DNA of 60,986 nucleotides, filler included, from Stramenopiles sp. TOSAG23-3 (lineage: Eukaryota): the NCBI GenBank assembly GCA_900128585.1. It is 13 parts of 13 records of this genome, joined end to end, with 100 filler letters (N's around TTAATTAATTAA, not from the genome) between each part and the next. Parts side by side here need not be neighbours in the genome. Positions count along the whole stretch, not along the records: positions 18,871 to 23,475 come from LT643765.1; 12 more parts are not named here. The stretch is one strand, 5' to 3'. The translations under genes were made by a program, and so were the position numbers. Numbering within the stretch: the stretch's first letter is position 1; every line of letters starts with the position of its first letter. Shown one piece after another: positions 1-51,620 of this stretch. A model generated the notes under the pieces. The model was not told where the DNA came from, did no database searches, and saw nothing but the letters and a program-made list of their open reading frames with translations.

Positions 1-318
1 TTCTTCTTCTTCTTCTTCTTCTTCTTCTTCTTGCTTGTTGTAGTACTTGTGGTACTATTTATTAAATATTTATTATTAAAATAACCAAGAAGTAGTAGTA
101 GAAGAGAAAGACTAATTATTATATTTTTTAGTTTAAAAAAACGTGTTGCACAAATCTTTCTTATACGTCTTGATGTAGTTAGTAGAGGAAGGAATTCAAA
201 TTTATATACAACAAAAAAAAGAAGGGGAGCGAGTGTTTACACATTTTACATTTTTATTCAATTCAAGGCATTGCGCACTGAAAAGAAAACAAGGTTTAGT
301 TTACGTGGTTTTCTCACG

Positions 319-4622: not shown

Positions 4623-4722
4623 NNNNNNNNNNNNNNNNNNNNNNNNNNNNNNNNNNNNNNNNNNNNTTAATTAATTAANNNNNNNNNNNNNNNNNNNNNN
4701 NNNNNNNNNNNNNNNNNNNNNN
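4623..4722. other. Artificial contig linker. Also at 9343-9442, 14060-14159, 18771-18870, 23476-23575, 28178-28277, 32875-32974, 37565-37664, 42252-42351, 46938-47037, 51621-51720 and 56304-56403
   Basis: Identical 100-bp N44-TTAATTAATTAA-N44 spacer carrying stops in all six frames; the flanking contigs decrease in length. Confidence 0.98.
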
Positions 4723-5141
4723 GAATAATGCTCGAAATGATCATCGTCGTCGGACCGCTTCTTTGTTATTTTTCTTTCTTCCTTCTTCTTCCTTCTTCTT
4801 CCTTCTTCTTCCTTCTTCTTCCTTCTTCTTCCTTTTTTTTAATAAAATACAAAAGCAGTTGCGTTGTGTTACCCTCTTCATTCTTCTTCTTCTTGTGTCC
4901 CTGTTGTTCTTCCTTTTCCTTCTTTTTTTTTTATTATCATCATCAATAATATTATCGATCTTCTTCTTGCACTCTCTTCTTTACGACGGGGGCTTCTTGT
5001 TGAAACTCTACCTGAAAAGAAACGAGTTCATACGGGAGATTGTTCTACACGAGACAGCCGACGAAAGAGCAAGTATTTTTGTTTCGAATTCTGCATCGCA
5101 ACGAAACAGTTAGCCCACTTCTATTTACCACACGGCCCTAA

Positions 5142-7465: not shown

Positions 7466-8701
7466 TTATGGCACCGCGACGAACCCGCCCGTGTTCATGT
7501 TCCGCCGGCATCGGTCGTGAGAGTATATACAACCGCCCATCGCAACGTAGCACCCAGGGTCGAGCACGCCCACGGCGCCGAGCGCGGTGCCGATGTTAAA
7601 CGACGCGTCGGAGTTCTGAAATTTGTGCGGGCGCATGGCCGCCGTGAGGATGATGGTTTTGTGTGCCAGTTTCGTCTGCCGGGCAAGGTAGGTCGCCGTT
7701 GCTAAAATGGTGTCGGAACCGTGCGTAATTACAATTTTGTTCGTTGCAATTTGGACGGTCAGCTTCAACAGAGTGTCCAGGTCACTCCTGGTGATCTCCG
7801 TGGAATCTTTCCGGCAGCATTCGTAGTGCTCCACCTGAAACCCCAGAGGAACGTGCGCGACGGTCTTCAGCACCTCTTTGGATGCCGCCTCACCGATCTC
7901 GAACGCGTACCCATTCGATATGGCCGGGTAATCTTTGTCAATGGTGCCCCCCATCTGTACAAACGCCACGCGCGGCTTTGGCAGGGGTCTGCTGCTGCGG
8001 GGAGTGTCCACGGTCGATTCAACGCGGGGTGTGTGTGACCCCACGGCGGTCTTTGGCTCGTCCCGTTTGTTCGCATGCAGCGCGAGCTTGGCAAGGCCTT
8101 CGCCAAGTGTTGCGGAAACCAACATTTTCAGGACCGAATCCTCCGATGCCTGGCGCCGGGCGTTCGCCCGCGCCGCGAAGGCGTTAACCTCTTTCGCCGC
8201 CGCGTCCACCGTGAGCTTGTGCCGGTGGTGCAGCCAAAGGGCGCAGCACGTCCCTGTTCGGCCCTGGCCGGCACTGCAGTGGACCACGATACGCTCGTTG
8301 GCCGTTTCGGCGGCCGTCAGCGCGTCTAGCACTCGCTTCCGGGCGTCCTTCGAGTAAATGTCCGCCACGGTCTCCACCACCGCGTCGCCCCCAAAATGTC
8401 GCCGGTACTGCTTCAGCAACGGCTCCTTGTAAAACGTGAGCTCCGACCTCGTCAGCAAGCACAGGACCCTCTTGATTCCTTTCGTTTTCATGTGTTCGAC
8501 CCAGTGCTCAACCGCATTCTCTTCGATCGGCGGTCCCCTTGGCGTCGTCAACAGCCCCTCACGAGGGTGTACATGACCAGGGCGCGCCGCGGCCCACACA
8601 ACATCATCCCGCGACGACACTTTCGAAAGGTTGTACTTTGCGTTCGACGGTGGCGGCTTCCTTTCGACCCCACGGGCAGTACTGTCCCGGGAAAACTCCA
8701 T
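7466..8701 (-). CDS. Fusion of a dual-specificity/tyrosine phosphatase with an L-asparaginase N-terminal-type domain
   Basis: P-loop VVHCSAGQGRTG (CX5R); C-terminal half has MGGTIDKDY, ITHGSDT and TAAMRP...SDASFNIG. Confidence 0.8.
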   Translation of the reverse strand: MEFSRDSTARGVERKPPPSNAKYNLSKVSSRDDVVWAAARPGHVHPREGLLTTPRGPPIEENAVEHWVEHMKTKGIKRVLCLLTRSELTFYKEPLLKQYRRHFGGDAVVETVADIYSKDARKRVLDALTAAETANERIVVHCSAGQGRTGTCCALWLHHRHKLTVDAAAKEVNAFAARANARRQASEDSVLKMLVSATLGEGLAKLALHANKRDEPKTAVGSHTPRVESTVDTPRSSRPLPKPRVAFVQMGGTIDKDYPAISNGYAFEIGEAASKEVLKTVAHVPLGFQVEHYECCRKDSTEITRSDLDTLLKLTVQIATNKIVITHGSDTILATATYLARQTKLAHKTIILTAAMRPHKFQNSDASFNIGTALGAVGVLDPGCYVAMGGCIYSHDRCRRNMNTGGFVAVP

Positions 8702-9444
8702 TATCGAACAACAATTTCAAACGGCTCCAACTTTAAAATACCAACAGTGAAGGATAGACGACTGTCTCCCTTTCTCTCTGTTTCTGCGTGTGTGTGTGGA
8801 CATTTCCCATCATGTCCATTTGTTTTTTGTATGTCGATGATGATGAATTTTTTTATTATACCGAGTTGGTAATACCAAAGGTACTACTAAAAACTAAAAT
8901 ATAAAAAATAATAAGAAGTCGTCCTTCCTTCTCTCTCGCTCCTTCTTCCTCTTCCTCCGGCACCACCACCAACAATCTCATAATAAAATTAATAAATTAT
9001 AATATTACTACATTATCACAGCAAGAAGAAGGGAATCATTTTTGAAATTGAAAGAGTAAAAATACCTATGATGCATGGTAGTAGTACCTGTAAGTTGTCG
9101 GGAGGAGGAGGAGGAGGATAGGAGGAGGCAAACTAACGATCATCATCAAAAAAAAAATGATTTAAAAAAATATCTTACTTTATTGATAATTGAAGAATTG
9201 CTTTTGGATTTTAAAATAAAGAATAAATTAATGAACGAATGGAAACCAAGCGAGGGCATACCTATTCTTCCATGCTTTAACTTATTTTTTACTTCTCGGT
9301 TAACGCCCTTTTTTGTTTGACCCCCCCCCCCCCCCCCCCCCCNNNNNNNNNNNNNNNNNNNNNNNNNNNNNNNNNNNNNNNNNNNNTTAATTAATTAANN
9401 NNNNNNNNNNNNNNNNNNNNNNNNNNNNNNNNNNNNNNNNNNCC

Positions 9445-14059: not shown

Positions 14060-14159
14060 NNNNNNNNNNNNNNNNNNNNNNNNNNNNNNNNNNNNNNNNN
14101 NNNTTAATTAATTAANNNNNNNNNNNNNNNNNNNNNNNNNNNNNNNNNNNNNNNNNNNN

Positions 14160-18688: not shown

Positions 18689-18870
18689 TTGTACAAAGTG
18701 CTATTCCAACGAACAACAAGAAGAGCAAGAGAACAAACACGAACCAGAACAAGAATAGTTGTATCCACTANNNNNNNNNNNNNNNNNNNNNNNNNNNNNN
18801 NNNNNNNNNNNNNNTTAATTAATTAANNNNNNNNNNNNNNNNNNNNNNNNNNNNNNNNNNNNNNNNNNNN

Positions 18871-19355
18871 GTCAGGTTCCTGAGGTGGCAGTGCGTAGTC
18901 CGCGTCATCAGGGGGAGCTGGGGGAACGTTTTCGTGACCAGCTGGGGCGGCTCCTTGTTGTACGCCACGCTGAAGGTGACGTTCAGCGCGGCCGCGTACC
19001 AGACCCCCCGTTCCCTGCACTCGGACGGGAACAGGCGCGCGTCCGCGCAGGGCCCCGTCCGCGTCGGGTACCCAACGTTGACGCTGCTGACCCCTACCCT
19101 AACGATAGGCCCCGTCCCGTCGTCCGCCTGGACGATGGTCTCCGGAATGTCCCGTATGGCGGCCTTCAGCCCGTTCCCAAGGAAAAAGTTGAAGGAGTCG
19201 ACGTGGGGCTGCACGATGTGGCGCAAGTTCTTCAACACCTCGGTCTTGGCGGCTGGTATGGCGGAGTGGGAGAACGACGGCGCGGTTTTCCGATGGGTGG
19301 AAAAGTAGCTCTTTCGTTTGCCCCCGTCGACGTCCATCGCACTCCCTCCCGGCAT
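18871..19355 (-). CDS. RPA2: RNA polymerase I second-largest subunit, 5' fragment truncated by the contig edge
   Basis: PHVDSFNFFLGNGLKAAIRDI, LFPSECRERG..Y, LPLMTRTTHCHL match the RPA2/POLR1B N-terminus. Confidence 0.85.
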
Positions 19356-20227
19356 GTTCTTTTTTTTATTGGTTTAAACTATTATTCGCTGCCCCCTTAC
19401 TTTTCTTCTTCTTCTGTACAGTATGTCTTATTTGTAAACAGTCCTCGTATAACGATAGCCCGTATCCCCGCACAAACACACTCGGAAAGAATGAACCACA
19501 CAAAACGACAAACAACAGAACAAAAATCCTACTTAAAAAACGTTGTGTTGCGTTGTGGTTTTATGATGATGGGGAATATACGAAAGAGAAGAAGCGAACG
19601 GAGACGATCGTGTTTCCCCGTTTGCTCTGTTTTGATATAGGTGCCGGTAGCGTATCGTTTCGTAATTAATTCCAAAGTCCAAATTCCAAGGCTTGGCTTC
19701 GGCGTTTTTTTGTTGGTTAACGGAGGTCCTTTTAAATGGTATGGTATGTCCCTGTATTAAAAAAGTATCCTATGAAAACTTATTCTTCCTTTTATTAAGG
19801 CTTTTTTGTATAATAATAAAACAAAAGTGTCTGTTGTAATGGTATTGTATGTATATATATGGATGAATATTAAATTACGTATTTCTATGAATAATAATAT
19901 GATAGTATAAAACACAATTTTAATAAAAACCAATTTATATATTTTTATAACTACACAAAGTGAACTTTTATTATATTGAACATTCCTTAAAACAGAAGGG
20001 AGTCTTAAATTAGCGAAAGTGATAAGTTTATTATTTTATTATAGGAATAGCATTGTATTTGATAGAATACAATTTAACATGTAATTAGTATTGAATTGTG
20101 TCGTTTGTGGCTGGAAGAAATCTTTTGATAAAATAAAAGATAAAAAAAGGAACGAAAGGAACGAAAGAAGAGAAGAGAAGAGAAAAGGAGAGAGAATAGG
20201 ATTTATAATTTATAATTGATTTACTAC

Positions 20228-20405
20228 TTCCTTCTTCTTTCTTTCTTTCTTTCTTTCTTCTTTTAATTCTTCTTCTTCTTCTTTCTTTCTTCTTTTAATT
20301 TTTCTTCTTCTTCTTTCTTTCTTCTTTTAATTCTTCTTCTTTCTTTCTTCTTCATTTAATTCTTCTTCTTTCTTTCTTCTTCATATAATTCTTCTTCTTT
20401 CTTCT
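20228..20405 (+). repeat. (TTC)n/(TTTC)n compound microsatellite. Similar tracts at 1-31, 4776-4832, 52100-52140 and 58355-58605
   Basis: Directly visible pyrimidine-rich simple repeats. Confidence 0.9.
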
Positions 20406-20640
20406 GAATGTGTTATTATTGTCCTATTGAAGGAAGAAAAAAGAAGTAAGTCAAGAATATAATTAAATTAATTTAGGAACTATATTAATTCCTTAAGAAT
20501 ATAACTACAACATCGACAGAACGAAGGGATTATCAATGAAAGAAAGAATAACTGTGTCTATATTAAATAACATTAAGAAGAACACAATGAAGGAGGGCGA
20601 AATAGTACATCATAACTCACACTGTGTGGGTGTTAACTAT

Positions 20641-20935
20641 TATTTAACATAAACACAATGAAGGAAATATGATTGGATTAAAGTCTATGCTGTATCCATA
20701 TTAATAATTATTTAATATAAACACAATGAAGAAAGTATGATTGGATTAAAGTCTATGCTGTATCAATATTACTAATTATTTAATATAAACACAATGAAGG
20801 AAGTATGATTGGATTAAAGTCTATGCTGTATTAATATTAATAATTATTTAATATAAACACAATGAAGGAATTATGATTGGATTAAAGTCTATGCTGTATC
20901 TATATTAATAATTATTTAATATAAACACAATGATG
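20641..20935 (+). repeat. 68-bp tandem repeat, about 4.3 copies
   Basis: Unit tatttaatataaacacaatgaaggaagtatgattggattaaagtctatgctgtatcaatattaataat starts at 20641, 20709, 20777, 20845 and 20913, with few substitutions. Confidence 0.92.
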
Positions 20936-21288
20936 GAATGATGGAGGAATAGATAAAAACTGTGAATTATTTCTTCTGTTTAAAAAGGGGGGCATTTGCA
21001 TTTGCATTAAACTGCATTTGCATTTGCCTTTCTTTTGCTTCTATCTTCTATCCCATTCCGGGAGGATTTATTATAAATTAATAATAATAATTAGAAACAA
21101 TTTGTCTAATGTCGTACCAACGAGTGAAACCATCAATTCCCATTCGATCGACCCATTGAAAAGGTAACATCGTCTCTTTCTTTCCTAACCTTCTCCCCGT
21201 TGCCAACCACAGATCTTTCCCGTGGGTCAACCTCGAAACATTGCCACACCCCGCCTGGTTCGAAGCACGCTGCAGGGTGAGGGAAAAC

Positions 21289-23109
21289 ATGTTCAGTCGG
21301 TCGGGGAAGAGGACCGGGGCGTCCTTCACGGTCCAAGTCGTCTGCGCGGCCGTCCTAGTTTTTTCATCCCGGTCGACCACCAGCCTTAAGCTCCGCGGCA
21401 GGATCCCGCTGTCCCCTCCCGCGAACAACCCGCTCGACCCCCAGTTTTTCAATTCGGACAGCCAGGCAGGGCTTGGGTTGAAGACCCGCCAACAGATGGC
21501 CCCGAGCGGGGAGTTCATCGTCGACACGAACGCGGAGGTCGGGTTGAACAACGCGTTCGACAACCCCATAAAGAACGCAGGATTTTTGAACGACTACCTG
21601 TCGATGACGAAGAAAGAGATCGCATCCGCGAAGAGCGCAAACATCGACCCAAAACTGGGGGCCGCCCTGTACGTAAAGACGGGCATTACGAAGCAGAAGC
21701 CCATGGGGATCAGTGCGGAAGAGCTCGGAAGCTTAGACTCGATGCAGGTGGCGCAGATGACGTCCCAGCACATGAACACGGAAGAGTGGAAAAGCGTCAA
21801 CGAACAGATAGAAGACCGACCGCCCGCGTTCCACGCACCCCCCGGCGACCCGGACTGGGGGTCCCTGAACAAGCCCATCTCGCCCGCGGCGAAGCGTGGG
21901 TTTCCCGACGGCACGGACGCGCACGGCGGGGCCCTCGGGGACGAGGGCGGCATGCGTGCCGGGGGGGGGGGGGGCAGGGGGTCCTCCGGCGGTTCGGCGA
22001 ACTATGACTCGAGCTACACCCCCGTCACCGGCGGGGCCGCGTGCACCCCGCCCCCATCGGGGTTTTTGCCGGGCCGGGGGTCCAATGCCCTGTTCAAACA
22101 GCTCGAAGTGCACGAAGGGAACATCGACCACGTCTACAGGGACAGCCGGGGGCTGCTCACGTTTGGGATTGGGCACTTGATCACTAGCAGCGACCCGGAG
22201 TACGGGAAGCCGGTGGGCCACCCCGTCGACGCAACGCGCATACGAACGGTCTTCAAGTACGACGCAAACAAACACTTGCAAGAAGCGAAAAGCCTGTACT
22301 CGAACTTTGCGCAGTTGCCGGAGGAGGTCCAGCTGATCGTTACGGACATGGCGTTCAACATGGGCTGCGCGGGGGGAAAGGGCCTCGCCGCGTTCAAAAA
22401 CATGAAGCGGGCAGTGTTGGCAAAGAACTACGTCGCGGCCGCAAGCGAGATGCAGAATTCCAGGTGGTGCGGGCAAGTAGGGAGACGGTGTAGTAATTTG
22501 GTCGGGAGAATGCGGGCGTTGGGAAACTGCGGGGACGGCGCGGCCCAGCAATCGTCCAGCAGTAGCAGCAGCAGCAGCAGCAGCAGCCGGAGGGCCTCCT
22601 CGTCCTCCAGCTCCGTCCAGCCGTCGCAGGCGCCCGCAGGAGGTGGGTGCCCAGGTGGCAACATTTGGACCAAGGTTAAAAACCATCGGGAAATCAGGCT
22701 CAACAATTACCACCCGAGCGGGGTCCAAGACCAAGCCTTCCCGAACTTGCAGGTCGGCGAAGCGGCAAAGGGCAACCGGGCGCACCTTTCGAATTACGGG
22801 AACGCCCCAGGCGGGTCCACCTGCTTGCTTCCCAAGCTGGGGAACTTTTTGCTCTCCCTCGCAGACAATTACGGGGGGGTCACCATAAACTCCATTGCGG
22901 GGGCCAGCCACAGCAGGAACTCCAAGCACTACAGGGGAATCGCGATCGACGTCGGGAAATTGAAAGGCAAGACCTTGAACAACTATGCAATGGCAAAGCT
23001 TGTCGTCGACACGTGCCACAAGATGGGAGGTTACGCCTGCTCCAACCCAGGTGGCAGGAAGCTTGCCGGCTGCCCTGGGCATAGTACATGGGTGCATTGC
23101 AGTTTTTAA
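21289..23109 (+). CDS. Predicted secreted bifunctional peptidoglycan hydrolase: GH24 phage-type lysozyme plus M15-like Zn peptidase
   Basis: Hydrophobic N-terminal segment; HEGNIDHVYRDSRGLLTFGIGHL (E-x8-D-x5-T), MAFNMG, AASEMQNSRWCGQVGRR; poly-Ser linker; SHSRNSKHYRGIAIDV...GHSTWVHCSF. Confidence 0.85.
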   Translation: MFSRSGKRTGASFTVQVVCAAVLVFSSRSTTSLKLRGRIPLSPPANNPLDPQFFNSDSQAGLGLKTRQQMAPSGEFIVDTNAEVGLNNAFDNPIKNAGFLNDYLSMTKKEIASAKSANIDPKLGAALYVKTGITKQKPMGISAEELGSLDSMQVAQMTSQHMNTEEWKSVNEQIEDRPPAFHAPPGDPDWGSLNKPISPAAKRGFPDGTDAHGGALGDEGGMRAGGGGGRGSSGGSANYDSSYTPVTGGAACTPPPSGFLPGRGSNALFKQLEVHEGNIDHVYRDSRGLLTFGIGHLITSSDPEYGKPVGHPVDATRIRTVFKYDANKHLQEAKSLYSNFAQLPEEVQLIVTDMAFNMGCAGGKGLAAFKNMKRAVLAKNYVAAASEMQNSRWCGQVGRRCSNLVGRMRALGNCGDGAAQQSSSSSSSSSSSSRRASSSSSSVQPSQAPAGGGCPGGNIWTKVKNHREIRLNNYHPSGVQDQAFPNLQVGEAAKGNRAHLSNYGNAPGGSTCLLPKLGNFLLSLADNYGGVTINSIAGASHSRNSKHYRGIAIDVGKLKGKTLNNYAMAKLVVDTCHKMGGYACSNPGGRKLAGCPGHSTWVHCSF

Positions 23110-24022
23110 CAGGCTTTGAAGAGAAAGATGTTTTGTAAATATTTTAGGATGGTAGCCGCACATATTAAATTCTGTCATGTGTTTGGTATGAAAGAACCTT
23201 GTTCTCTTCCGATCCTTCATCCTGCCCCCTCACCCCCTTTCTTCTTTCAATCTCTCCCACCGAACCCCACTTTCCTCGTTGACAAAAGGAACAGATCGAT
23301 GGTGCGAAATGAGACAAATGCCAGAAGGATCATTTTAAATAGGGAAGAATAATACATTAGAATACGATATTAGTACATATGGTTTCTTCATCGTTACTTC
23401 ATTATGAACCTCTTCCTCTTTCTTCTTCTTTTCTTCATTATGAACCTCTTCTTCTTCTTTACTTCATTATGAACCNNNNNNNNNNNNNNNNNNNNNNNNN
23501 NNNNNNNNNNNNNNNNNNNTTAATTAATTAANNNNNNNNNNNNNNNNNNNNNNNNNNNNNNNNNNNNNNNNNNNNAAGATGATCGATGATGATATCATCA
23601 TCGATCGGGGAGGCTATAATACTAGTCGTCTATTATTATTCAAGGCTGGGCTGTGGGCTGTTGTTGTTGTTGTTTATTAATTGTGATTTATTATAATAAA
23701 ATAATAATAATAAATTTTAATAATAATAATTTTTTTAATATTATTATTTAAAAAAAATAAAAGTAGTGGTTAGTTCGAAGAAGAATGAAAATGAATGAAT
23801 GAACAATAATTAAATTAAAAATATGAAATGAATTTGGTTTATATCTACAATCAATTGTTCTTCTCGCGCGAGTCTGTATAAGTCATTTTCCCCAACTTTT
23901 GATTGGTTTTTATTTGAGTCAAAATCAGTTTTGGGTGTTTGTATTATTCATCGATCTTTCAGTCGTGTTGTGTCTGTGTGTTTGGCAGAAGAGACCGTTT
24001 GCGTGCCGTACTGAACTGACAA

Positions 24023-28177: not shown

Positions 28178-28931
28178 NNNNNNNNNNNNNNNNNNNNNNN
28201 NNNNNNNNNNNNNNNNNNNNNTTAATTAATTAANNNNNNNNNNNNNNNNNNNNNNNNNNNNNNNNNNNNNNNNNNNNCACAGCAGCATAGACACAGTACT
28301 GTTACAACCAACTCCGCTCGCTGAGAGAAAGAAGAAAGTTAGGAAACAGAAAGATTAAGTCTAAAAAAAATGAAGAAAGAAAGAAAATTAAAAACAACTA
28401 ATCCATCCTCCTTTTGAAGAAAAAAAAACCAAAGAAAACAGCAAAATCATTTTTCTCCTATTTACATAGTAATAACATTGTCAGAATCTCGATTCATAAT
28501 TTAAAGCTGTTATAAATAATCTGTAAAAGACAAAAACATCATCCTTTTTTTCTATCTCTTCTTCCCAGAAATCATGTCATTCTTCTGTTATTTATTCCAC
28601 ATTATTGATAATTTAAATAGGGCAGATTTAATTCGGATCACAGCATGGCCGTAGCGTACGATTCGTACACAATATTATATAAATAATAAACAACAAATAA
28701 CAACAACAACAAAAACAGAATGAACAACAACTGGGATTTGGACTTTAGAATGATTATTTGTGTTTTGCATGTGCCAGCAGTGCAAGTGCAACCATCCCAT
28801 TAATTGTCTTCTTCTTTCAGAGAGATACAAATTGAAATGTTGATTCAAAGTGTTCGATAGGGTTGAAACACCAAAGGTTGTCTTGCCTGGATATTTTTGC
28901 AGTTGCCATATCCAACACTCGCTTCAAAAGC

Positions 28932-32661: not shown

Positions 32662-33369
32662 GCGATCACTGCGCGCGTGTAAAGGATAAATTTTTGACTT
32701 TTGTTTGTGGGTTAATGGCTGTGCGTGCGTGTAAAATCATTCTCTTATTACGAGAAAAATTTGGCTGTTATTTTTTATAGTAATTAAAATTAAAGAAAAA
32801 AGAAGGTGTCAGTTCAAGAACAATGTCTCCTCCTATTACGGATCCTCCCCAAGTTCTGGTCGAGATTCCAATTGNNNNNNNNNNNNNNNNNNNNNNNNNN
32901 NNNNNNNNNNNNNNNNNNTTAATTAATTAANNNNNNNNNNNNNNNNNNNNNNNNNNNNNNNNNNNNNNNNNNNNAGAAGAAGAAGAAGAAACCTTCCCTA
33001 TATTAATATTTCCAAAATATTCATATGCTGTGTTTACATTAAATATAAACGTGACCAATAAATAATATTTTTTGTGGATAAAAAATAATAATAATAATAA
33101 AAAAATTTAAATGTTGTTGTTCTTTCTTTCTCTTGTAAAACATACGTCGAATTTTGGACGTAAGAAGAAAGGAAGGAAGGAAGACATTAGGAGGCGTTTA
33201 GACAATAAATTGAATTCATACGGACAGGTTGGTTTATACGTTTGTGCTTTTTAGTGGCTTACCACACACACGCAAGAAAGAAAGAAAGAACCGAATACGA
33301 CGTATCGTGAGAGTGGTGCCGCCGTGCCTGCCGTGTTTTGTTAAGAAGGAGAGCGAGGGAGACAAAATT

Positions 33370-36606: not shown

Positions 36607-38482
36607 GTTTGATTTGTGTGTATGTGTGTGTGTTTAAAGTATTGGATAGGATGTTCCGTTTGTAGGTTTTGTTATCTTCTTCAGTATTTCTACTTTGCAA
36701 TTGGAATCCTTTCCGTTCTTATTACGTTTCAATCCATTCAATCCTCTTAAAGTGGAACGGAATGTTCCTTGCGACATGTTCCGCCGGAATGAAACGATCC
36801 AAATGAACAATTAACATCGACATAGTATATAACAAAGGAATCTTGGATGGAAGGAGCAAATAAGAAATAAGTTGGAGGGGTCTATTTGTTATAGTAAGGA
36901 TATATATGTATATTTCATGTGATAATAATTTAATAATATTATCGTATGATTGTAATCAATTGAAGGATCTCTCAAAAATAAATAGTACCTTAAATGGATA
37001 AACATTCGTTGGTTTAAAATTTTATGACCAGAGAATTCTATTAAGAATGTAACTTCCATAATTAATATATCTGTCTTTCCCTTGTTGTACACTCTTTTGA
37101 TTTATTATTTGACAATTTGTTCATCAACTATTCTAATTTCAGTATTTAATGTAAACATTTGATATTTGACTGGTGGATCGGATCGTTCTCAATAATTTAA
37201 TTCTTTCATTTTGTTTTGTTTCTTCTTTGTTATTTACCTGTTAGGAAAAGAAGAAAGAGCTTTTCATTTTAATTAAAAAAACTATGAAAATTTCATTAAA
37301 ATTTCATTAAATTTTTTTTTTTTTTTTAAAAAAGAAAAAAACTATATTTTTATTCATATTTTATTAACAGGTACACAGCTTTGTACAATTCATATTACAT
37401 ATGTATACTATCAATACTAATTGTATACTATATACTTTAGTATATAAATAAGATGAAAAATATGAATGAGTTATAAGATGAGTTCTCAAAATTCTTACGA
37501 ATTTAAACAGTATTACTATAGATCCAATAGAGGAGATTAAAAAATAGAATTAATTTAAAGAGGANNNNNNNNNNNNNNNNNNNNNNNNNNNNNNNNNNNN
37601 NNNNNNNNTTAATTAATTAANNNNNNNNNNNNNNNNNNNNNNNNNNNNNNNNNNNNNNNNNNNNAGCTTTTCAACACTGTGGTAATTTGTAAGATGTATT
37701 TAAATAAATTAATATAGAAATAATGTATAATTGTATATATGTATAAAAAAGTTCAAAATAAATAAAAAAGTAGTTCAAAAAAATCAATACAAGCACACAA
37801 CCCAGTTAATACAAATATCAATACAGCAAGTGTTTAGACCAATTTAATGGATTTAAACTGGGTCCTAATGGTATGATGCTTTAAGACAAAACGCAACGCA
37901 TATAAGCCTAACCTACCTGCCGACTAACTATAATATATATTTCCAGCCCTCTTCAATATACTCCTAACTCATAATACTATAGAATTTAAGAGGGAATCAA
38001 GTTGGTTAAAGTAGTACTGTAGTAGCAGTAAGAAACAAATAGGAAATAAGAAGAATAATGATGATGAGAAATATTTTTTTTTTTAAATTAAAAAAAAAAC
38101 AGAACAGAAAAACAAACCACCAACGACATCAACACAGCATTTACATCGTCGTCGTCATCATCTTCATTTTTTTTTTACTTTTTCTTTCTTCTTTTCTTCT
38201 CCCAAGTCATTCCATTTCCATTTCATAGCGAACAAGTATTTTAAAATAGATTCATCACGGTGCTTCAATAAGAAGGATCGTTGTATAGTTAAAGCATAAG
38301 AGTTTCCCTCGTTGCCAGTCCTAACTCTGAAACTGAAATAGGAAGACACGGCTGAACCGGCTGAGCTTGAAAATACAGGGAACACACTTTGCAGGTGCAC
38401 TCGCCACAACTATTGCTCGTAGAATACAGAAGACAATAGCCTTGCAGACGACGTCTTTGTAGCAACCGGCTCATCAGGTAAT

Positions 38483-41400
38483 ATGTTTTCTCCCCAATCA
38501 AATTCTGCTCCTGCATTTACCGGAACCGGAGGTGGAGAGCGCAAGCAGGACCGTGCCGATATGCGTGAGAAGTGGATAATCGGCGTTATTTATGATTATT
38601 TTCGGGGGACGGTGAAAGTCGACAAGTTGAACAAGTATTTGTCCAGCGACGACTGCTTGTCCACCGTTCGCGACTTCATGGACGTCCCCGACGAGCGCTT
38701 CGTCTGCCTAAAGGAGTCAGGGACAGCGGTGCAAATTGCACGGAAGCCCCCGAACAATGTCAAAGGGCGAATTTTGTATTTGTTGAAACCCAAGTCGCAG
38801 GCCTTGCCGGGCCGCGACTTCGAGCGGCTGGTGCTCGTCGGGGACTTGACGGCGGACAGTCTTCTCCACTTGAACGAAGTGGCACAGTACGTGTACATGC
38901 CCCTTCTCTCCAACCCTAACAACCAGCGGGCGTGGAGTGAGCTAGTATCAAAGGACATCATGGACAACCTCCACACGTTTTTAGCAAATATTCAAATTGA
39001 GATTGGGCGCACAAAGGGGCAAACCATTTTGCCGTTGCCCTCCGACGAGGACCTGGACGAAAAGCCGATAACGACGAACAAGGAACGCATCCATGTCTTG
39101 GAGGGGTGCTTGATCACGTGGACAAAGCAGATAAAGAAAGTGCTGCGCCGCGACCCAGAAGATATGCTGAAGCAAAGTGCCAACCCCGGCCCGCTTGCAG
39201 AACTTGATTTTTGGAAAGCGAAAAGCGCCGATTTAGACTCGATATTCGAGCAGCTCCAGGGGTTGAAAGTCAGGAAATTGTTAAAATTTTTAGACGGGGC
39301 AAAGAGCACGTACAACATGCCTTTCGCCAAATTGTGCAAGGAAGTGTTCCAGGCGCGGACAGAGGCCAACGACAACTTGTTGTTCCTTAAGCCGCTGAGG
39401 CCATGGTTCGAGCAAAACCGCGACGTGGACTTTAGCAATTTACCATCTGTATTTCGCCCGATTATGCACTTGATCCTTCTGGTATGGAAGAATTCGCGCT
39501 TCTACAACACGCCGTCGCGCTTGGTTGTCCTGATGCGCGAAATATGCAATTCCCTGATCGCAAAAGCCACGGCCTACATCAACGGGGAGATGGTGTTTGA
39601 AATGATCGAGAATGAAGAGGCAAACCGAGCGGTTTCGATGCTGAAAACCACGTTGCGAGTGTGTGGGAATTTCAAAAGCGCTTACTTTGATTACAAGGCC
39701 AAGGCAAACAGCGAATGCCCCACCAACCCGTGGAGAATTCAAAACAATGCCCTGTTCGTTCGCTTGGACAGTTTTCTGGAACGGTGCCACGATACCCTAG
39801 ACTTGACCCAAACCATTGTTCAGTTCTTCAAGCTCGGAAAACTTGAAGTGGGCGGAACGAAGGGGAAAACGTTGACAACGAGCGTTCAGCAAATCTTCAC
39901 GGACTTCGAAAAAGCAGTTCAGGCCTTTAAAGCGGTGCAGTACGACATAATGGACGTCGACGCAAAGAACTTCGACGACGACTTTTATGAATTTCGTGTC
40001 CGGATTAAAGAGCTTGAGAGAAGGCTAGCGTCCGTGCTCAGCCAAGGCTTTGACGACTGCGTCACAGTAATCGGAAAGTTCAAATTGCTGGACAGCTTCG
40101 AAGGGCTACTGAATCGCCCGATTCTTGCAGACGAGCTGGAGAAAAAACATTCCACCCTGATCGGCTCGTACAATGACGACTTGCGGGAGATGCAGCAGCT
40201 GTTCATTGATGCCAAAGACGCGCCCCCAATCCCGAGCAACATGCCGAAGATATCTGGGGCCTTGCAATGGTGTCGTGGGCTCCTGGAGAGAATAAAGCTT
40301 CCAATGGAAAAGCTGAAGGACCTCGATCGTTCGGTTTTGGACAGGGAGGAAGCGAAAGAGGTCGTGAAAACTTACACGTCCCTGGTCGCCAGCCTTGGAG
40401 AATACGAACATTTGAAAATAGAGCAGTGGGGAGAAGAAATAGAGCAGTCGTCTCAAGCTAAGTTGAAATTGCCGTTGCTCCGGCGAAAAGACGGGTCCCA
40501 CGAGCTGGTGGTCAACTTTGACCCAAAGCTAGTGGAGCTTCTTCGGGAAGTGAAGTATTTTCTGCTGTTGGGGTTGAGTGTACCAAGCAGTGCCCTGAAC
40601 ATTTACAAAAAGGCAGAAATATTTCGGCGACAGACTGGGAACTTGGAGCTCATCGTAAACATGTACAACAACGTGCTGACTAGTTTGCTCCCCGTAGAGG
40701 CCCCACTGATGAAAGGAGATTTAGACAAGATAGACAAAGCATTACAACAAGGAGTCAAGAATATTAATTGGAAAAGCCACGGGATTGATTACTTTCTCAC
40801 GGAATGTATGGGCAGCGCAAAGAACCTGGATGGCATGCTATCTGTCATGAAGACGAGTCTGAAGCGTGTCGACGAGCTGACAGAAGAGTGGCAATCAGAG
40901 CCGCTCTTCCAGCGCCGTCACAAGCCCATTTCAACGGAAGAAAACGAACAAGCGTTCAAGCAGGGCTTGAAAACCAGGTGCAACTTAATCTCGTCGGGTG
41001 GCAAAGAAATCCACAAACTGCTGAAGAACATGAACAAAAAGTTGCGAGTAAGCCCAGGACTTCCCGATTGGAAATCATACCAAGACTTCATTAATAACGT
41101 GATTATAGCGGGCCTGAGCAAGGTTGTCGAAGCTTCTTTGGGCTATTTGAACCAGCAATTGGACGCGGAGGTGATAAAGGCCGAAGACAAGTTACCTATT
41201 CTCGAAATTGAAATGGAGCTTTACGGTAAAGACGTCGTTTTTGTTCCCGCGGTAGGACCTGGACAGGATGGCAACCTAGGCCAGGGGGGTGGCATCCGAA
41301 GCATAGTAGGCGGCTGGATCGAGGGATTCTTGGCCATCACCCGCTTGTTTAAACGCTTCGACTCTGTCGACGGTACGTTTGGAAAAGAGCTTCTCGATAA

Positions 41401-42251
41401 CCCCTACATTCAAATTCTTATTGGTACCATAAACGAGAATCTTTTGAAGAATGAAGCCAGCTGCGAAGATTATAGAAAGGTGTATGTTGAGTTTGAATAT
41501 TTATGGTGCACCGATTTGAGCAAGTATTTCAAGGCGTTTTTAGAGGACGCCTGGTTGGAAAACAGAGACGATGAAGGGAATGTTGTTGGGAAGCGTCGAT
41601 TAAATCTCGACAAGTTTGACGAAGAGATAAAGCGATTCAGAGTTGTCCAGCAAGACATTGGCGCCTTGGCTAGCTCCACCGACATCGATTTTCTCCGCGT
41701 TAATTCGCAACCTATTCAACAAGCGATGTCAACATGGGTAACGAAGTGGGTGTACATGTTCACTTCTTATTTACAGGACCATTTGACGGAAAAGCTTGCG
41801 GGCATAAAAGCTTTCATGGACCGTATATACGATGGTTTAATAGAACCAATACGATCGGACAACCAGGACAGCTTGATGGCCGCCATGACCCACATAAGGG
41901 ATGTGCGGAAAGCCATGACGGACACACAAGAGTCGTTTGGGCCCATGCGCGAGTGCATGGCATTGATGAAACGGCACGGCATCGACATGTCAACCGTGAT
42001 AATAGGAGACGAAGAATTAGGCGATGAAATTAATGCCGTAGAATTGTTGGAAGCGCTTCCCATGCTGTGGGACAAAACGGTTAACTTGGCGTTTAAGAAG
42101 AAGGAAGAGATTCAACCAATTCAGAATTCAATGGCAGAAAGCATCTCGAAAGATGTAGCAAATTTTGCCAACAAAGTCAATCGGTTCCGGATGAATTTCA
42201 GGACTAACGCCCCATTTTCATATACCGGCCCGAGTTCAGAAGCATACAAAA
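38483..42251 (+). CDS. Axonemal (outer-arm-type) dynein heavy chain, N-terminal tail, 3'-truncated
   Basis: DHC_N1 motifs GRTKGQTILPLP, IHVLEGCLITWTKQIK, PGPLAELDFWK, FYNTPSRLVVLMREICN, KLEVGGTKGK, VNFDPKLVELLREVKY. Confidence 0.93.
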
Positions 42252-42561
42252 NNNNNNNNNNNNNNNNNNNNNNNNNNNNNNNNNNNNNNNNNNNNTTAAT
42301 TAATTAANNNNNNNNNNNNNNNNNNNNNNNNNNNNNNNNNNNNNNNNNNNNAAAGTGTCATGATGAGATATGGAAGAAACGGTGGTGAAGATGAGTTAGA
42401 GATAGACCGTGTGTGCGCTTCGTACCATAGGTATTTTTGAATTTGTTATACGAGCTAATTCATCGCAGAGGAAGAGTTAACGTTTAAATAAAAGAAAGAA
42501 GCAGACTTTCAGGCATTTATTCAAGGACAAATTGTTCAATTCCAAAACGACAAAAACAACA

Positions 42562-45033
42562 ATGTACGTAGTCAAACGTGACGGTAGAAAAGAACCCGTG
42601 CAGTTCGATAAGATCACTGCGCGGATTGAAAAACTTTGCTACGGCTTGGACGAGAACTTCATCGAGCCAATCTTGATTGCACAAAAAGTAGTGAAAGAGG
42701 TGTACAATGGAGTCACCACCTCCGAACTTGATGAACTTGCAGCGGAGACGGCCGCATACAAGTCGACCCAGCACCCGGACTTTTCGAAGTTGGCTGCCCG
42801 CATCAGCATGTCTAACTTGCACAAAAGCACCAGCGACAGCTTCATGGGGACCGTCGAAAAGTTGCACAAGTACGTTCACCCACGAACGGGTCTGAGCGCA
42901 CCGCTCGTATCTGATGAAGTGTACAACATCATCAAGGCGAACATCACGGAACTTGAGGCCACAATCGACTACAAGCGCGACTTCGGGTACGACTACTTCG
43001 GGTTCAAAACCTTGGAGAGGGCCTACCTTTTGAAGATCAACGGCCAGATCGTCGAGCGCCCGCAGCACATGCTCATGCGCGTTTCCATCGGTATCCACAA
43101 AGCGGACATCGAGCGAGCGATCGAGACCTACAACTTGATGAGCAACATGTACTTCACTCACGCCACGCCGACCCTCTTCAACGCCGGGACCCCACGCCCG
43201 CAGCTCGCCTCGTGCTTCTTGCTGACCATGAAGGACGACAGCATCGAAGGGATCTACGACACCTTGAAGTCCTGCGCCTGCATCAGCAAGTACGCCGGGG
43301 GCATCGGTCTATCCATCCACGGCATTCGCTCCCAAGGCAGCTACATTCGGGGCACCAACGGTTCCAGCAACGGCATCATCCCCATGCTGCGCGTCTTCAA
43401 CGACACCGCACGGTACGTCGACCAAGGCGGAGGCAAGCGCAAGGGCTCGTTCGCCATGTACCTTGAGCCGTGGCACGCGGACGTTTTTGAGTTCTTGGAT
43501 TTGAAGAAAAACCACGGTGACGAGAACGCCCGCGCCCGCGACCTGTTCTACGCGATGTGGATCCCAGACCTTTTCATGAAGCGCGTACAGTCCGACGGGC
43601 AGTGGACCTTGTTCTGTCCCAACGTGGCCCGTAACCTGCACGAAACCTGGGGCGAGGAGTTCGAAACCTTGTACGCCAAGTACGAGGCAGAGGGCAAAGG
43701 GTTCAAGACCATCCGCGCCCAGGAATTGTGGTTCAAAATCCTTGAAAGTCAAGTAGAAACCGGAACACCGTACATGCTCTACAAGGACTCTTGCAACCGC
43801 AAAAGCAACCAGCAAAACTTGGGAACTATTAAATCGAGTAACTTGTGCACGGAGATCATCCAGTACACTGCCCCGGACGAGATTGCCGTTTGCAACTTGG
43901 CGTCCATCTGCTTGCCAAAGTTCGTGGACACCAGCGGCGACAAGCCAGTGTACAACCACAAGGCACTGTTCGATGTTGTTAAAACCGTGACCGTCAACTT
44001 GAACCGTGTCATCGACGTCAACTACTACCCAGTGGAGGAGGCTCGCTACTCCAATATGCGCCACCGCCCAATTGGGCTGGGCGTCCAAGGGCTTGCCGAC
44101 GCGTTCATTTTGATGCGCTTTCCATTCGAAAGCGAAGAGGCCCGACAATTGAACAAGGAGATATTCGAAACCATGTACTTCGCCGCGATGACCGCGTCTT
44201 GCGAGGAGGCCGAACGCTTCGGACACTACGAGACCTACCCAGGCTGTCCAGTCTCCAAAGGCATCTTCCAACCGGACATGTGGAACGTTACCCCAACGGA
44301 CCGATGGGACTGGGCGGAACTTCGCGCCAATGTCGCCAAGCACGGCGTACGCAACTCGTTGCTCGTCGCGCCAATGCCGACGGCCTCGACCTCACAAATT
44401 ATGGGAAACAACGAATGCTTCGAACCATACACGACCAACATGTACAACAGACGTGTGCTTGCAGGAGAGTTTACGTGCGTCAACAAGCACTTGTTGCGTG
44501 ACTTGATCGCGTTGAACATCTGGACCCCAAGCGTGCGCAACCAGATCATTGCCGATGGAGGATCTGTTCAAAACGTTAAGGGCCTTCCCAAGCAGTACAA
44601 AGATCTGTACAAGACCGTCTGGGAAATCAGCCAAAAGACTATCCTTACCATGGCCGCAGACCGTGGTGCATTCATCGACCAAAGTCAAAGTTTGAACGTG
44701 CACATCGCCGCCCCCTCCACCGGAAAGTTGACCTCAATGCACTTTTACGCCTGGAAGAAGGGTCTTAAAACCGGTATGTACTACTTGCGCACTCGTCCCA
44801 AGGCCGATGCCATCCAGTTCACTGTTGACCAAACGCAATTGGCTGAAACTCGCAAGACCACCACCGCAGACAAAGAGAACCAGTCCCAAGAGAGCAAACG
44901 GGCCGCTATGTTGGGCGCCTGGAACAAAGTTGATACCACGAAAAACATGACCTTCAAGAAGGCTGACCGTGCGAAGAATGCCGCCGCAGCAGAAGAGGAA
45001 GACTCCGAAATTTGCTTGTCGTGCGGAAGTTAA
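42562..45033 (+). CDS. RRM1: Ribonucleoside-diphosphate reductase large subunit (class Ia)
   Basis: ATP-cone [58 protein letters not shown]-terminal CLSCGS. Confidence 0.98.
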
Positions 45034-46849: not shown

Positions 46850-47091
46850 GCGTAGAGTGCTCAGTTACAAAAAGCTAGTAAACACCCCAAATATGTGACT
46901 ACTACTACTATTAATACCTCCTCTTCTACTTCTTCGANNNNNNNNNNNNNNNNNNNNNNNNNNNNNNNNNNNNNNNNNNNNTTAATTAATTAANNNNNNN
47001 NNNNNNNNNNNNNNNNNNNNNNNNNNNNNNNNNNNNNAATATATTACTTATAAATAACAGCCAATTTTTTGATTTTTAAATATCTGGTTGA

Positions 47092-50000: not shown

Positions 50001-51620
50001 TATTGCTTCTTATCAAAGGGGACCACTGCAATAGATTCGGGTTTACTAGGCTGCACTCACCACCGCTGGCATAGCCAGAGAACGTAACGGCGGGGCACCC
50101 AGTGGTGCCTTTGCATGCAGCTACACACCCTGCAGAAGTGGCGGTAAATGCGTTCATTACTGCCGATGTTGTGCGGTACTCTAAAAGAATAAAATCTGAT
50201 GCGGGGTCAATGACTGGTAAGTTCGGAGACTTTGTCCAGTTCTGTCGAGGCAGAGCGTATGAAGGTGGAGTCGGCTCGGTGAAAGTACACGTTTCCGCTT
50301 CCTTCGGTTTTGAAGACTCGTCACATCGGTCGTAGCACGACTCGCAGCTAATACCGTCGCCTGTCAGTGAATTTACGCAACTGCAGGAAACGGTCCGTAC
50401 TTTTACGCCACCTGTTTTGGGCAAGATCGCTTTTGTACAGCTTCCCCAGCTGCCAACGCTCCATCCCGTTGATTGCGAATTTGTGGCATTAGGATAACAT
50501 CTGGTCTTCACGACGCATCTGCTATCTGCATCGGCTTTCTCGTAGCCATCCAGACAAGTGCACTTTTCACCATAGCTCCACGGCGAACCTTGGTTGTATA
50601 TTTTTTCGCAACGGCCGTACCCGCAGGTCTCCCCATTGCTCAAGACGTTTGAGCACTTGGCACACAGCTTCTGAGAGTTGCACGATTGAATCGTCAAGGG
50701 TCGGTTGTAGGCGCATTCGGATGCTTTTGCGGCAGTCCCGTTTGTCCAAGCACACAAATTTTTGCGCGATTGAGTTGGCAGAACTTTCGTCTTAGTGTCC
50801 TTAATGCAATCCGCAGAGCATTTACCGAAAGGCAAAGAGATCCATTCCTTGTACTCGTCATGGGGCTGCTCATAGCATTCGTATTCTCTGTTCGCGTTGG
50901 GTGTGGGGTCTGCCACAAAGCAGCAATGGTAAAACTCACAAGCTCGCCTGCGAATATCAACCGATATCGAATTTCGGCGATTGTCGGAGGCATACAACGA
51001 ACATGCCCTTCTACCAACATCTTTCCGGCACTGCAAGTCGCAATGAAACATATTGCAGTATTGGCTGGAGGGGAGCTTGGGTGCCCAAGAGCAATAGGAA
51101 TCGTCTACTTGTTTGCTGAGGACGGGAGAAGAAAGGGGTGCACAAAACACTGTTCTATTTTGTACCCCAGTGCCGCACGCTTTGTTACATGAGCTCCAAG
51201 GAGTGCCGACCCATTTGAAGGCATCTAAACGCAAGAATATATCTTTCGGGACGTTGAGTGGTTGAAAAGAGAAGAGGTCGGCAGCATTTGCCGGATGTTC
51301 GTATTCGACCGGTGTGAAAACAGCCTTCCCGTACGTTGTCTCTTTCGGATGGTACGCCTTAACGGGACGCCCATATGGCGTTGCAGATTCCGTGCAAGTT
51401 CCTGAATGCATACGGCACACAGACCCGCCATCTCTAGACTCTGCTGCCATGCAGCTCCCTGTATTGGAACAGAGGGACAAACAAGCAGCAGCATCGGCAA
51501 CGTTGGAGTCTGTGAAGGACCCATCGCATTCAATGTTTTTGCAGGTACGTTTAAAGCCGGAGTTGGTTGGATCTGTCATTGTCACGGCTGCGCATAACAG
51601 TCTTAATTCACCCGTCCATA
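47092..51620 (-). CDS. Large type I membrane protein with PAN/apple-like, TSP1 and EGF-like modules and a transglutaminase-like segment; 5'-truncated; intron 48947-49009
   Basis: WSSCNKACGTGVQNRTVFC-type TSP1 repeats, an EGF-like Cys cluster, and a TM helix PLIAILISIIVLGFLGAMAF. A 63-nt GTAAGT...CTAAC...CTAG intron joins ORFs 49006-51585 and 47092-48873 in frame (FAW-IYGSF). Confidence 0.8.

Follow-up and report, generated by a model that had tools for sequence, protein, structure and literature searches.

A gene built like a phage endolysin in the assembly of a protist raises two questions: whether it really belongs there, and what its product would do. Such a gene lies at positions 21289–23109 of a 60 986-nucleotide stretch of DNA from the assembly of Stramenopiles sp. 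TOSAG23-3 (GCA_900128585.1), the whole of which was analysed and is referred to here as the window. A first-pass annotation, made from the sequence of the window, had described the gene as a eukaryotic fusion of a phage-derived GH24 muramidase with an M15-like zinc peptidase. We find that the gene resides in a eukaryotic genome and is transcribed, that its lysozyme domain carries the catalytic positions of T4 lysozyme and that its C-terminal domain adopts, on the evidence of its model and matches, the fold of the LAS peptidases. The reading that we favour, with a probability of roughly 0.62, is that of a secreted or food-vacuole enzyme in which, as in multi-domain endolysins, the GH24 module would cut the glycan strand and the LAS module a peptide bond.

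Gene and protein organization

The product is composed as the first-pass annotation had it: a single intronless open reading frame begins with a hydrophobic segment and continues through a pro-like region and two domains separated by a poly-Ser linker, with the following boundaries.

21136–21288, plus strand: 5′ untranslated region of the mRNA (oligo-dT RNA contig starts at 21136 and 21142)
21289–23109, plus strand: coding sequence, 606 residues and a stop codon, intronless (translation; RNA contigs collinear with the DNA)
21289–21369, plus strand: probable signal peptide, residues 1–27, with a basic start, a 13-residue hydrophobic core and SSRS (hydropathy)
21370–22086, plus strand: N-terminal region, residues 28–266, with a core (residues 68–215) conserved in orthologues and a Gly-rich tail (orthologue alignment)
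22087–22533, plus strand: GH24 (T4-type) lysozyme domain, residues 267–415 (Pfam, PDB and PHROG)
22534–22653, plus strand: poly-Ser/Ala/Gln linker, residues 416–455, coded by a trinucleotide repeat (translation, repeat finder and hydropathy)
22654–23106, plus strand: putative LAS-fold zinc peptidase-like domain, residues 456–606, with six cysteines (alignment, model and structure comparison)

The ATG at 21289 is the first within the RNA contigs. The sole hydrophobic segment of the protein lies at about residues 14–27 (Kyte–Doolittle 11-residue maximum of 2.75), and the orthologues P0003 and P0008 likewise begin with a hydrophobic segment. The N-terminal region (∼240 residues) has no match in Pfam, PHROG or NCBIfam, and its best score in the ESM Atlas (0.81) is at chance level. 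Shared ancestry with the N-terminal parts of two LAS-bearing proteins (P0218 and P0219) was considered and rejected (BLASTP E of 0.13 or worse). The Gly-rich stretch at 21970–21981 is an allelic length variant, with about 12 extra Gly-rich residues in one RNA contig (X19), in P0002 (617 residues) and in P0153 (619 residues). The GC content at third codon positions (GC3) of the gene is 0.80, the highest of the 21 open reading frames of the window that were measured (0.39–0.74 for the rest), and that of its three parts is 0.74–0.84. A tblastn search within the window matched the gene to itself only.

The lysozyme domain

The first domain matches the Pfam family Phage_lysozyme (PF00959) over residues 275–407 with an E value of 2.6e-6, its 28.2 bits exceeding the gathering cut-off (22.3 bits), and T4 lysozyme chains of the PDB over 142 residues (E of 4e-8). 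In a phmmer alignment the stretch HEGNIDHVYRDSRGLLT (E276-x8-D285-x5-T291) falls in register with Glu11, Asp20 and Thr26 of T4 lysozyme, so that the GH24 assignment and the T4 catalytic spacing put forward in the first-pass annotation both hold. The codons of the three catalytic positions, placed by the T4 lysozyme alignment, are as follows.

22114–22116, plus strand: Glu276
22141–22143, plus strand: Asp285
22159–22161, plus strand: Thr291

Among PHROG families, tail lysozymes and endolysins match the domain with E values of 9.5e-17 and 1.2e-14 (range 1e-17 to 1e-14). Among phages the closest relatives are Pelagibacter phage lysozymes (43% identity), and none of the 1390 matching phage records reaches 60%. 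In a FastTree phylogeny of 136 rows, the window domain groups with P0002, P0004, L002 and P0007 with a local support of 95, and these five rows have in common a cysteine motif, WCxQ..RC (WCGQVGRRC in the window), that is missing in 129 of the 136 rows. The tree yields no donor because nearly all of its rows are unlabelled. On the Pelagibacter match a marine phage source of the GH24 domain is plausible, and the term 'phage-derived' of the earlier annotation can stand as a plausible reading.

The C-terminal domain

The two motifs that had drawn attention to the second domain, H547-x6-D554 (HYRGIAID) and the terminal H598-S-T-W-V-H603, are both present. The pattern of LAS zinc ligands, H-x(3–6)-D followed by a distal histidine, is matched by H547-x6-D554 and His603. 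In an alignment of 20 sequences, His541, His547, Asp554 and His603 are invariant and His598 is kept in most rows. The codons of the invariant residues, taken from this alignment, are as follows.

22909–22911, plus strand: His541
22927–22929, plus strand: His547
22948–22950, plus strand: Asp554
23095–23097, plus strand: His603

AlphaFold gave an unusable model from the single C-terminal sequence, with a predicted local distance difference test score (pLDDT) of 39, and a model based on the 20-sequence alignment was used instead (pLDDT of 86.3, predicted template-modelling score of 0.84). Compared using VIA-align with 48 161 representative chains, this model has LAS proteins as all 11 of its best rows (Z of 7.4 to 4.7). 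The top row is the DD-peptidase of Streptomyces albus (1LBU; Z of 7.4, 106 residues, r.m.s.d. of 3.5), and the others are ShhN (7.3 and 7.0), VldE (6.6), VanX (6.2), fly Hh (6.0), MepA (6.0), Ply500 (5.9), DacB (5.6), LysB4 (5.5) and VanXYg (4.7). Foldseek ranks Hedgehog N-domains 1–38 (identity 12–22%), followed by M15-type lysins. Searched against the PDB with E values up to 10, a profile of the 20 relatives gave 24 matches, 23 to Hedgehog N-domains (best 2.4e-4) and the other to 1LBU (0.027); the profile alignment covers about 68 columns and spans the zinc motif, SHSxxSxHYxGxAxDI...HxHC. In the ESM Atlas the closest named cluster is 'Peptidase M15 domain-containing protein' (0.93). Of the other peptidase models, PF13539 and PF02557 each match one of the 20 family members with E of about 0.03, and neither the window domain nor the 20 relatives match the Hedgehog N-domain model PF01085.

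A LAS fold was taken to be an antiparallel sheet at the centre, flanked on one side by helices. Although none of the scores is overwhelming in itself, all of the methods agree on one superfamily and the metal ligands do not vary, and on these grounds we accept this fold for the modelled domain. The domain is best assigned to an uncurated LAS family whose nearest relatives are the Hedgehog N-domains and the M15A DD-peptidase. The designation 'M15-like zinc peptidase' can accordingly be kept as far as the predicted fold and the His547/Asp554/His603 pattern are concerned; no Pfam M15 model matches the domain, and peptidase activity would follow from its likeness to LAS enzymes.

Transcription and eukaryotic residence

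The stretch of DNA that carries the gene occurs in 20 listed runs of marine samples, six of them RNA runs, from 14 studies. Four runs were mapped onto the contig of the gene (18871–23475), namely two oligo-dT-primed RNA libraries from different studies and two DNA metagenomes. RNA contigs from both studies cover 21136–23140 alone, with no cover at 18871–21135 or 23141–23475, whereas DNA contigs cover the flanks too. The RNA contigs run collinearly with the DNA and break only at 21545–21592 (X19), at the Gly-rich site and at the poly-Ser repeat; at the Gly-rich site X19 has the allelic indel and X16 lacks cover over 21797–21987. These data fit a discrete mRNA of one gene, polyadenylated and without introns, that has its first ATG at 21289, the contigs giving neither its ends nor its level. 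DNA contigs lack cover at 19949–20256, where repeats are skipped, so that these gaps say nothing about linkage. Within 19355–21289, the interval whose read support the first-pass annotation had singled out for checking, no independent DNA contig spans 19949–20400.

The gene resides in a eukaryotic genome. Its status as a eukaryotic gene and not a phage contaminant, as had been proposed, is borne out by the oligo-dT RNA and by a spliceosomal intron in an orthologue described below, neither of which depends on the short contig of the gene.

Orthologues and origin of the fusion

JGI metagenome contigs were scanned with an alignment of the N-terminal region, which returned two loci, L001 and L002. 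L002 lies on a contig of 61 463 bp and encodes a protein with a signal-like start, an N-terminal region that is 46% identical to that of the window protein (as is that of P0008) and a GH24 domain that is 75% identical in its best segment. The GH24 domain of L002 contains an intron of 91 nucleotides (GTAAGT...AG) located one codon before the histidine that precedes the catalytic glutamate. A gene for an FGGY-type sugar kinase and a THO2-like gene, both named by eye, are its neighbours. L001 and L002 share the FGGY-type kinase as upstream neighbour, whereas the window gene has RPA2 upstream, and local gene order is therefore not conserved between these lineages.

The protein encoded by L002 ends with RMRALGNC and a stop codon at the position at which the linker begins in the window protein, and the neighbouring gene, on the opposite strand, is about 220 bases distant. 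In the window, RMRALGNC is followed without a stop by GDGAAQQ, the serine repeat and then the LAS domain. Since L002 stops after GH24, the ancestral protein would have consisted of a signal peptide, the N-terminal region and GH24, with the peptidase module added at the 3′ end in the window lineage; at the level of sequence, the comparison establishes a lineage-specific fusion. In a sister species, pieces of the orthologue (P0003, P0004, P0011 and P0155), the LAS part included, are found on one contig of 57 709 bp. Relative to the window protein its N-terminal region is 74% identical (P0003), its GH24 domain is 91% identical and its LAS part falls within a 90% cluster. Both folded modules are thus better conserved than the N-terminal region, which fits selection on both.

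The LAS family and its partner domains

With HMMER, 1.84 billion representatives were searched exhaustively; 3992 hits had an E value of 0.001 or better, and domain architectures were taken from the best 150 of them. Among these 150, 17 genuine relatives match the LAS domain alone. One further protein, P0110 (2233 residues, 14 matched stretches), is a repetitive surface-type protein without H-x6-D and was removed from the LAS set as spurious. A word-index search for the LAS region found only three short and six mid-length proteins and is too insensitive to gauge rarity on its own.

In named bacterial genomes, the LAS domain occurs at 26 loci with 29–40% identity. Among the hosts are five Herpetosiphon genomes and a Herpetosiphon plasmid, other Chloroflexota, Hyphomicrobiaceae, Bradyrhizobium, Akkermansiaceae, Vulcanimicrobiota and a Streptomyces. 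The domain is the C-terminal module of these proteins and is preceded by two PG_binding_1 domains, by Amidase_3, by GH46 with PG_binding_1 or by an Rv2525c-like glycoside hydrolase with YkuD (L,D-transpeptidase), which is the company expected of a putative peptidoglycan peptidase. In Herpetosiphon (L006, L008, L010, L012, L017 and L023) it follows two PG_binding_1 domains and is found both on the chromosome and on plasmid pHAU01; the LAS protein of these predatory bacteria is a candidate prey-lysing enzyme of the uncurated family. On two IMG/VR contigs the LAS domain ends a protein of 1100 residues, and it was found in none of 50 697 GenBank phage records. A metagenomic protein of 367 residues, P0134, has the LAS domain after what by eye resembles the end of an RHS/YD-type core (DPxGL-like, 'PYAFSENRVIDCVELEG'), a layout that suggests that bacterial polymorphic toxins may also use the domain as a toxin tip.

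In a quick IQ-TREE phylogeny, 17 rows that we term eukaryote-type separate from 33 bacterial and viral rows with a value of 98 in the Shimodaira–Hasegawa-like approximate likelihood-ratio test. The clade holds the window protein and its close relatives, P0005 and P0006, two proteins labelled as MAST-4 and one from Telonema subtile, together with the unlabelled P0175 (a cluster-mate of a MAST-4-labelled protein), P0020 and P0178, and P0137. Its rows have added cysteines and a W-x-H motif in common. The partners of the eukaryote-type LAS domain are GH24 (P0020), GH19 (P0012 and P0170) and a thrombospondin type 1 (TSP1) module (P0013). A Cys-rich module, C..G.C....C...G.CNGG.N.CC, is carried by P0020, P0006, P0012 and P0018; by eye the window protein has none between GH24 and the LAS domain, where the poly-Ser linker lies.

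In P0013 and P0172 (1006 residues, on JGI contigs of 22–26 kb, with a cluster-mate labelled MAST-4) a eukaryote-type LAS domain follows the TSP1 module. The window also encodes a TSP1-bearing protein, on the minus strand at 49006–51585. The pairing with TSP1 hints at adhesive or prey-binding partners for LAS enzymes.

The combination of GH24 with a LAS domain of the window type appears to be rare: among the best 150 of the 3992 hits it is seen in one cluster (P0020 and its mate P0178) and in the divergent P0076, and GH24 with a VanY-type M15 domain in P0037 (by Pfam) and P0065 (by eye only). The concern that the same architecture might be widespread was thus not borne out in this set. In a comparison aimed at a phage origin of the GH24–VanY protein P0037, 1736 phage records matched and not one of them covered 80% of the protein.

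Comparison with known systems

GH24 lysozymes have been described from several eukaryotes. In MAST-4 flagellates of the global ocean, GH24, GH22 and GH19 are the most expressed glycoside hydrolases, with GH24 genes of 622–1465 bp (PMC8237690); bivalves have co-opted phage-type lysozymes (PMC5303276); and a survey of eukaryotic Cys-rich-repeat proteins includes 26 with PF00959 (PMC7379824). These lysozymes resemble the window protein in catalytic family, triad and secreted eukaryotic context, and those of MAST-4 also in their marine bacterivore setting. The MAST-4 genes differ in length from the window gene (1821 bp), which has a private N-terminal region of 240 residues and the LAS domain; the available text of that study mentions no peptidase module (PMC8237690).

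The closest published parallel in architecture is A0A1Y2FMX2 of Neocallimastix californiae, a GH25 lysozyme with a Peptidase_M15_3 domain that was ascribed to two gene transfers (PMC7379824). Like the window protein, it is a eukaryotic, signal-peptide-bearing combination of a muramidase with an M15-clan zinc peptidase, both being wall-cutting modules of prokaryotic type. It differs in having GH25 instead of GH24 and a Pfam-recognized M15_3 domain instead of one from an uncurated LAS family; Cys-rich repeats precede each of its modules, whereas the window protein has none and has a poly-Ser linker, although its relatives P0020, P0006 and P0012 carry a Cys-rich module. GH24 in marine flagellates and a eukaryotic muramidase joined to an M15 peptidase by gene transfer have thus already been published (PMC8237690, PMC7379824). 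No description of a GH24 fusion with a LAS or M15 domain in protists was found in the literature, although supplementary gene tables may list such genes.

With LAS peptidases such as 1LBU, VanX, MepA and the phage lysins Ply500, LysB4 and LysECD7, the C-terminal domain shares the predicted fold and the H-x6-D and C-terminal His pattern. It departs from them in reaching no Pfam M15 threshold, in having W-x-H for H-x-H and in its six cysteines, and its N-terminal half (with the conserved HPSGVxD and RSSYGNAPGGS) has no nameable counterpart in them. The Hedgehog N-domains are its best profile and Foldseek matches, and the stretch SHSxxSxHYxGxAxDI...HxHC resembles HHSEESLHYEGRAVDIT...HIHC, but the likeness is limited to the ∼68 profile columns at an E value of 2.4e-4, with no PF01085 match. 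Roelink (2018) reported bacterial proteins more than 50% identical to ShhN and argued for a Hh/DD-peptidase family (PMC6027127); the window family is far more distant from ShhN than those proteins.

Genomic context

The window is a pseudo-molecule of size-sorted contigs placed end to end, and gene order across a spacer is meaningless. The spacers have the pattern N44-TTAATTAATTAA-N44, with 12 pairs of runs of exactly 44 N (24 runs in all), each pair enclosing TTAATTAATTAA, a 12-letter sequence with a stop in all six frames, and the pieces between them grow steadily shorter, from ∼4720 to 4683 bases.

Spacer sites 1–6: 4623–4722, 9343–9442, 14060–14159, 18771–18870, 23476–23575 and 28178–28277
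Spacer sites 7–12: 32875–32974, 37565–37664, 42252–42351, 46938–47037, 51621–51720 and 56304–56403

The breaks are confirmed by a dynein heavy chain open reading frame (38483–42251, plus strand; DHC_N1 with E of 1e-182), which is cut at a spacer after about 1256 residues and holds the N-terminal region only, and by the following piece, which opens with a complete gene for the large subunit of class I ribonucleotide reductase (42532–45033, plus strand). Because spacers lie at 18771–18870 and 23476–23575, only the following contig is physically linked to the gene.

18871–23475, no strand: real contig of the gene (spacers at both ends)
18871–19355, minus strand: N-terminal fragment of RPA2, an RNA polymerase I subunit, truncated by the contig end (Pfam and PDB matches)
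20231–20405, no strand: CTT-type microsatellite, intergenic, upstream of the gene (Tandem Repeats Finder)
20639–20938, no strand: 68 bp AT-rich tandem repeat, 4.4 copies, 94% matches (Tandem Repeats Finder)

The RPA2 fragment, which breaks off at 18871 after 161 residues, matches Pfam RNA_pol_Rpb2_1 with an E value of 4.3e-12, and its top PDB matches are the polymerase I RPA2 of two species (5e-8 and 1.2e-7). CTT/TTC arrays resembling the microsatellite of this contig are present on other contigs of the window (1–32, 4776–4834 and 58353–58605). The statement of the first-pass annotation that RPA2 and microsatellites share the contig of the gene is correct for 18871–23475, although the window itself is many contigs. 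The 68 bp repeat and a GCATTT-type short repeat (20990–21030) lie 350–650 bases upstream of the gene.

Elsewhere in the window there are further eukaryotic genes from the same assembly, physically unlinked to this one, including those for ALG3, RRP40, PDE-delta, a type-I signal peptidase, an RGS protein and an ArfGAP, and the source organism has a dynein heavy chain gene. An open reading frame at 7466–8701 (minus strand, 411 residues) shows an unusual pairing of a dual-specificity phosphatase-like domain (residues 59–173) with an asparaginase N-terminal domain (residues 244–401), and this protein recurs on metagenome contigs of up to 28 kb.

Proposed function and alternatives

Secretion, the activity of the two modules, the target bond of the LAS module, a part in feeding and the sequence and sources of the gene transfers are inferred in the following scheme. 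A nuclear gene of an uncultured marine protist is transcribed as a single-gene polyadenylated intronless mRNA, and its product would enter the secretory pathway through the N-terminal signal peptide. The GH24 module would cleave the MurNAc–GlcNAc backbone by means of Glu276, Asp285 and Thr291, as in T4 lysozyme, and the LAS module would bind zinc through His547, Asp554 and His603 and cleave a bond in the peptide stem or cross-link. Acting jointly, the two modules would dissolve bacterial walls, either in the food vacuole after ingestion or outside the cell. As to its history, a GH24 gene akin to marine phage genes would have become eukaryotic and gained the N-terminal region and extra cysteines; later, and in the window lineage alone, the reading frame would have run past the former stop into a Ser-rich linker and gained a LAS domain from the eukaryote-type clade that is also present in MAST-4 stramenopiles and Telonema.

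Several observations weigh against this scheme. In LAS enzymes the first histidine of H-x-H is a catalytic residue. At the distal ligand, where H-x-H is given for LAS peptidases (PMC6027127), the window protein has W601-V-H603. The C-terminal domain matches no model of Pfam, PHROG or NCBIfam even at an E value of 10 or 1, and just three of its 20 family members give a weak match to Peptidase_M15_3 (PF08291), the best at 1.2e-4 and 22.6 bits against a cut-off of 23.2. In the structure comparisons all Z scores are below 8, and no Foldseek match has an E value of 0.001 or better. Most of the relatives carry no taxon label, and the name 'eukaryote-type' comes from three labelled rows (two MAST-4 and one Telonema), the window and sequence style, and the hydropathy profile is the one line of evidence for secretion. 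The high GC3 is compatible with high expression and equally with a foreign or recent origin. Finally, no independent DNA contig crosses 19949–20400, and the link between RPA2 and the gene comes from one short assembly.

With W-x-H in place of the bacterial H-x-H, the C-terminal module could be inactive. The protein would then be a lysozyme with a dead peptidase, in which GH24 alone is catalytic and the zinc-stabilized LAS module binds peptide stems and holds the lysozyme on peptidoglycan. We consider this unlikely, though deserving of attention. Tryptophan replaces the first histidine of H-x-H in all 17 eukaryote-type rows while the bacterial rows keep it, and the nearest solved relatives by profile and Foldseek are Hedgehog N-domains, which are widely held to be non-catalytic and provide a precedent; lysins also often pair one catalytic module with a wall-binding module. 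However, the three metal ligands and His541 are invariant and His598 is mostly kept, which is stricter than binding alone requires, many M15 enzymes are active without H-x-H (VanX-type E-x-x-H), and the bacterial family members stand beside dedicated PG_binding_1 modules, suggesting a catalytic role for the domain there. Even if both modules act as proposed, the same biochemistry could serve defence, competition or the control of associated bacteria by a secreted enzyme instead of feeding. Animal phage-type lysozymes have been read as immune effectors, as in bivalves (PMC5303276), but the labelled relatives come from bacterivorous flagellate lineages (MAST-4 and Telonema) and GH24 is among the most expressed digestive hydrolases of MAST-4 (PMC8237690). 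Defence is still compatible with both facts, and we regard a non-feeding role as improbable.

A phage, bacterial or giant-virus gene might also have been mis-assembled next to RPA2 across the repeats at 19.9–20.9 kb. The real contig is just 4.6 kb long, low-complexity repeats separate RPA2 from the gene and are unbridged by independent DNA contigs, and the gene has the highest GC3 in the window. Set against this, the oligo-dT RNA contigs of two studies represent a discrete single-gene transcript, L002 has a canonical spliceosomal intron and lies among cellular eukaryotic genes on its 61 kb contig, and the other orthologue is on a contig of 57.7 kb. From these polyadenylated RNA contigs, the intron-bearing orthologue and the sister-species contig, contamination by a phage or bacterium is very unlikely. 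The GH24 domain, moreover, is at most 43% identical to its phage matches, the LAS domain is absent from the 50 697 phage records and its best bacterial matches are 29–40% identical. We therefore give contamination or a chimera hardly any credence and retain the bifunctional digestive enzyme as the preferred reading.

Implications

Marine bacteria are eaten chiefly by small heterotrophic flagellates, whose breakdown of prey walls is known mostly as lists of gene families. Relative to published work on eukaryotic lysozymes and peptidases, the advance made here is one of variant and detail.

A far-reaching idea, to which we attach only a slight chance, is that a protist-wide, eukaryote-adapted, disulfide-rich, Hedgehog-like LAS clade with W-x-H, comprising MAST-4, Telonema and the window protein, has been shuffled among secreted wall-degrading enzymes (GH24, GH19 and TSP1-bearing). 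If so, eukaryotes would have held Hedgehog-like LAS domains long before animals, and a peptidoglycan peptidase used in digestion by phagotrophic protists could be the ancestor of the 'Hedge' signalling domain. Such an origin would replace the proposed direct transfer from bacterium to animal.

For the LAS superfamily, the results point to a family that curated sequence libraries do not recognize and that occurs in predatory and other bacteria and, as a separate clade, in marine protists. Enzymes of this kind are candidate lysins, with disulfide-stabilized modules that eukaryotes may be able to secrete. For the organism, they suggest that one lineage has assembled an endolysin-like two-module enzyme from parts, with an orthologue lacking the second module that catches the fusion in the act; the transcript of the window gene is detectable in the poly-A libraries of several ocean studies.

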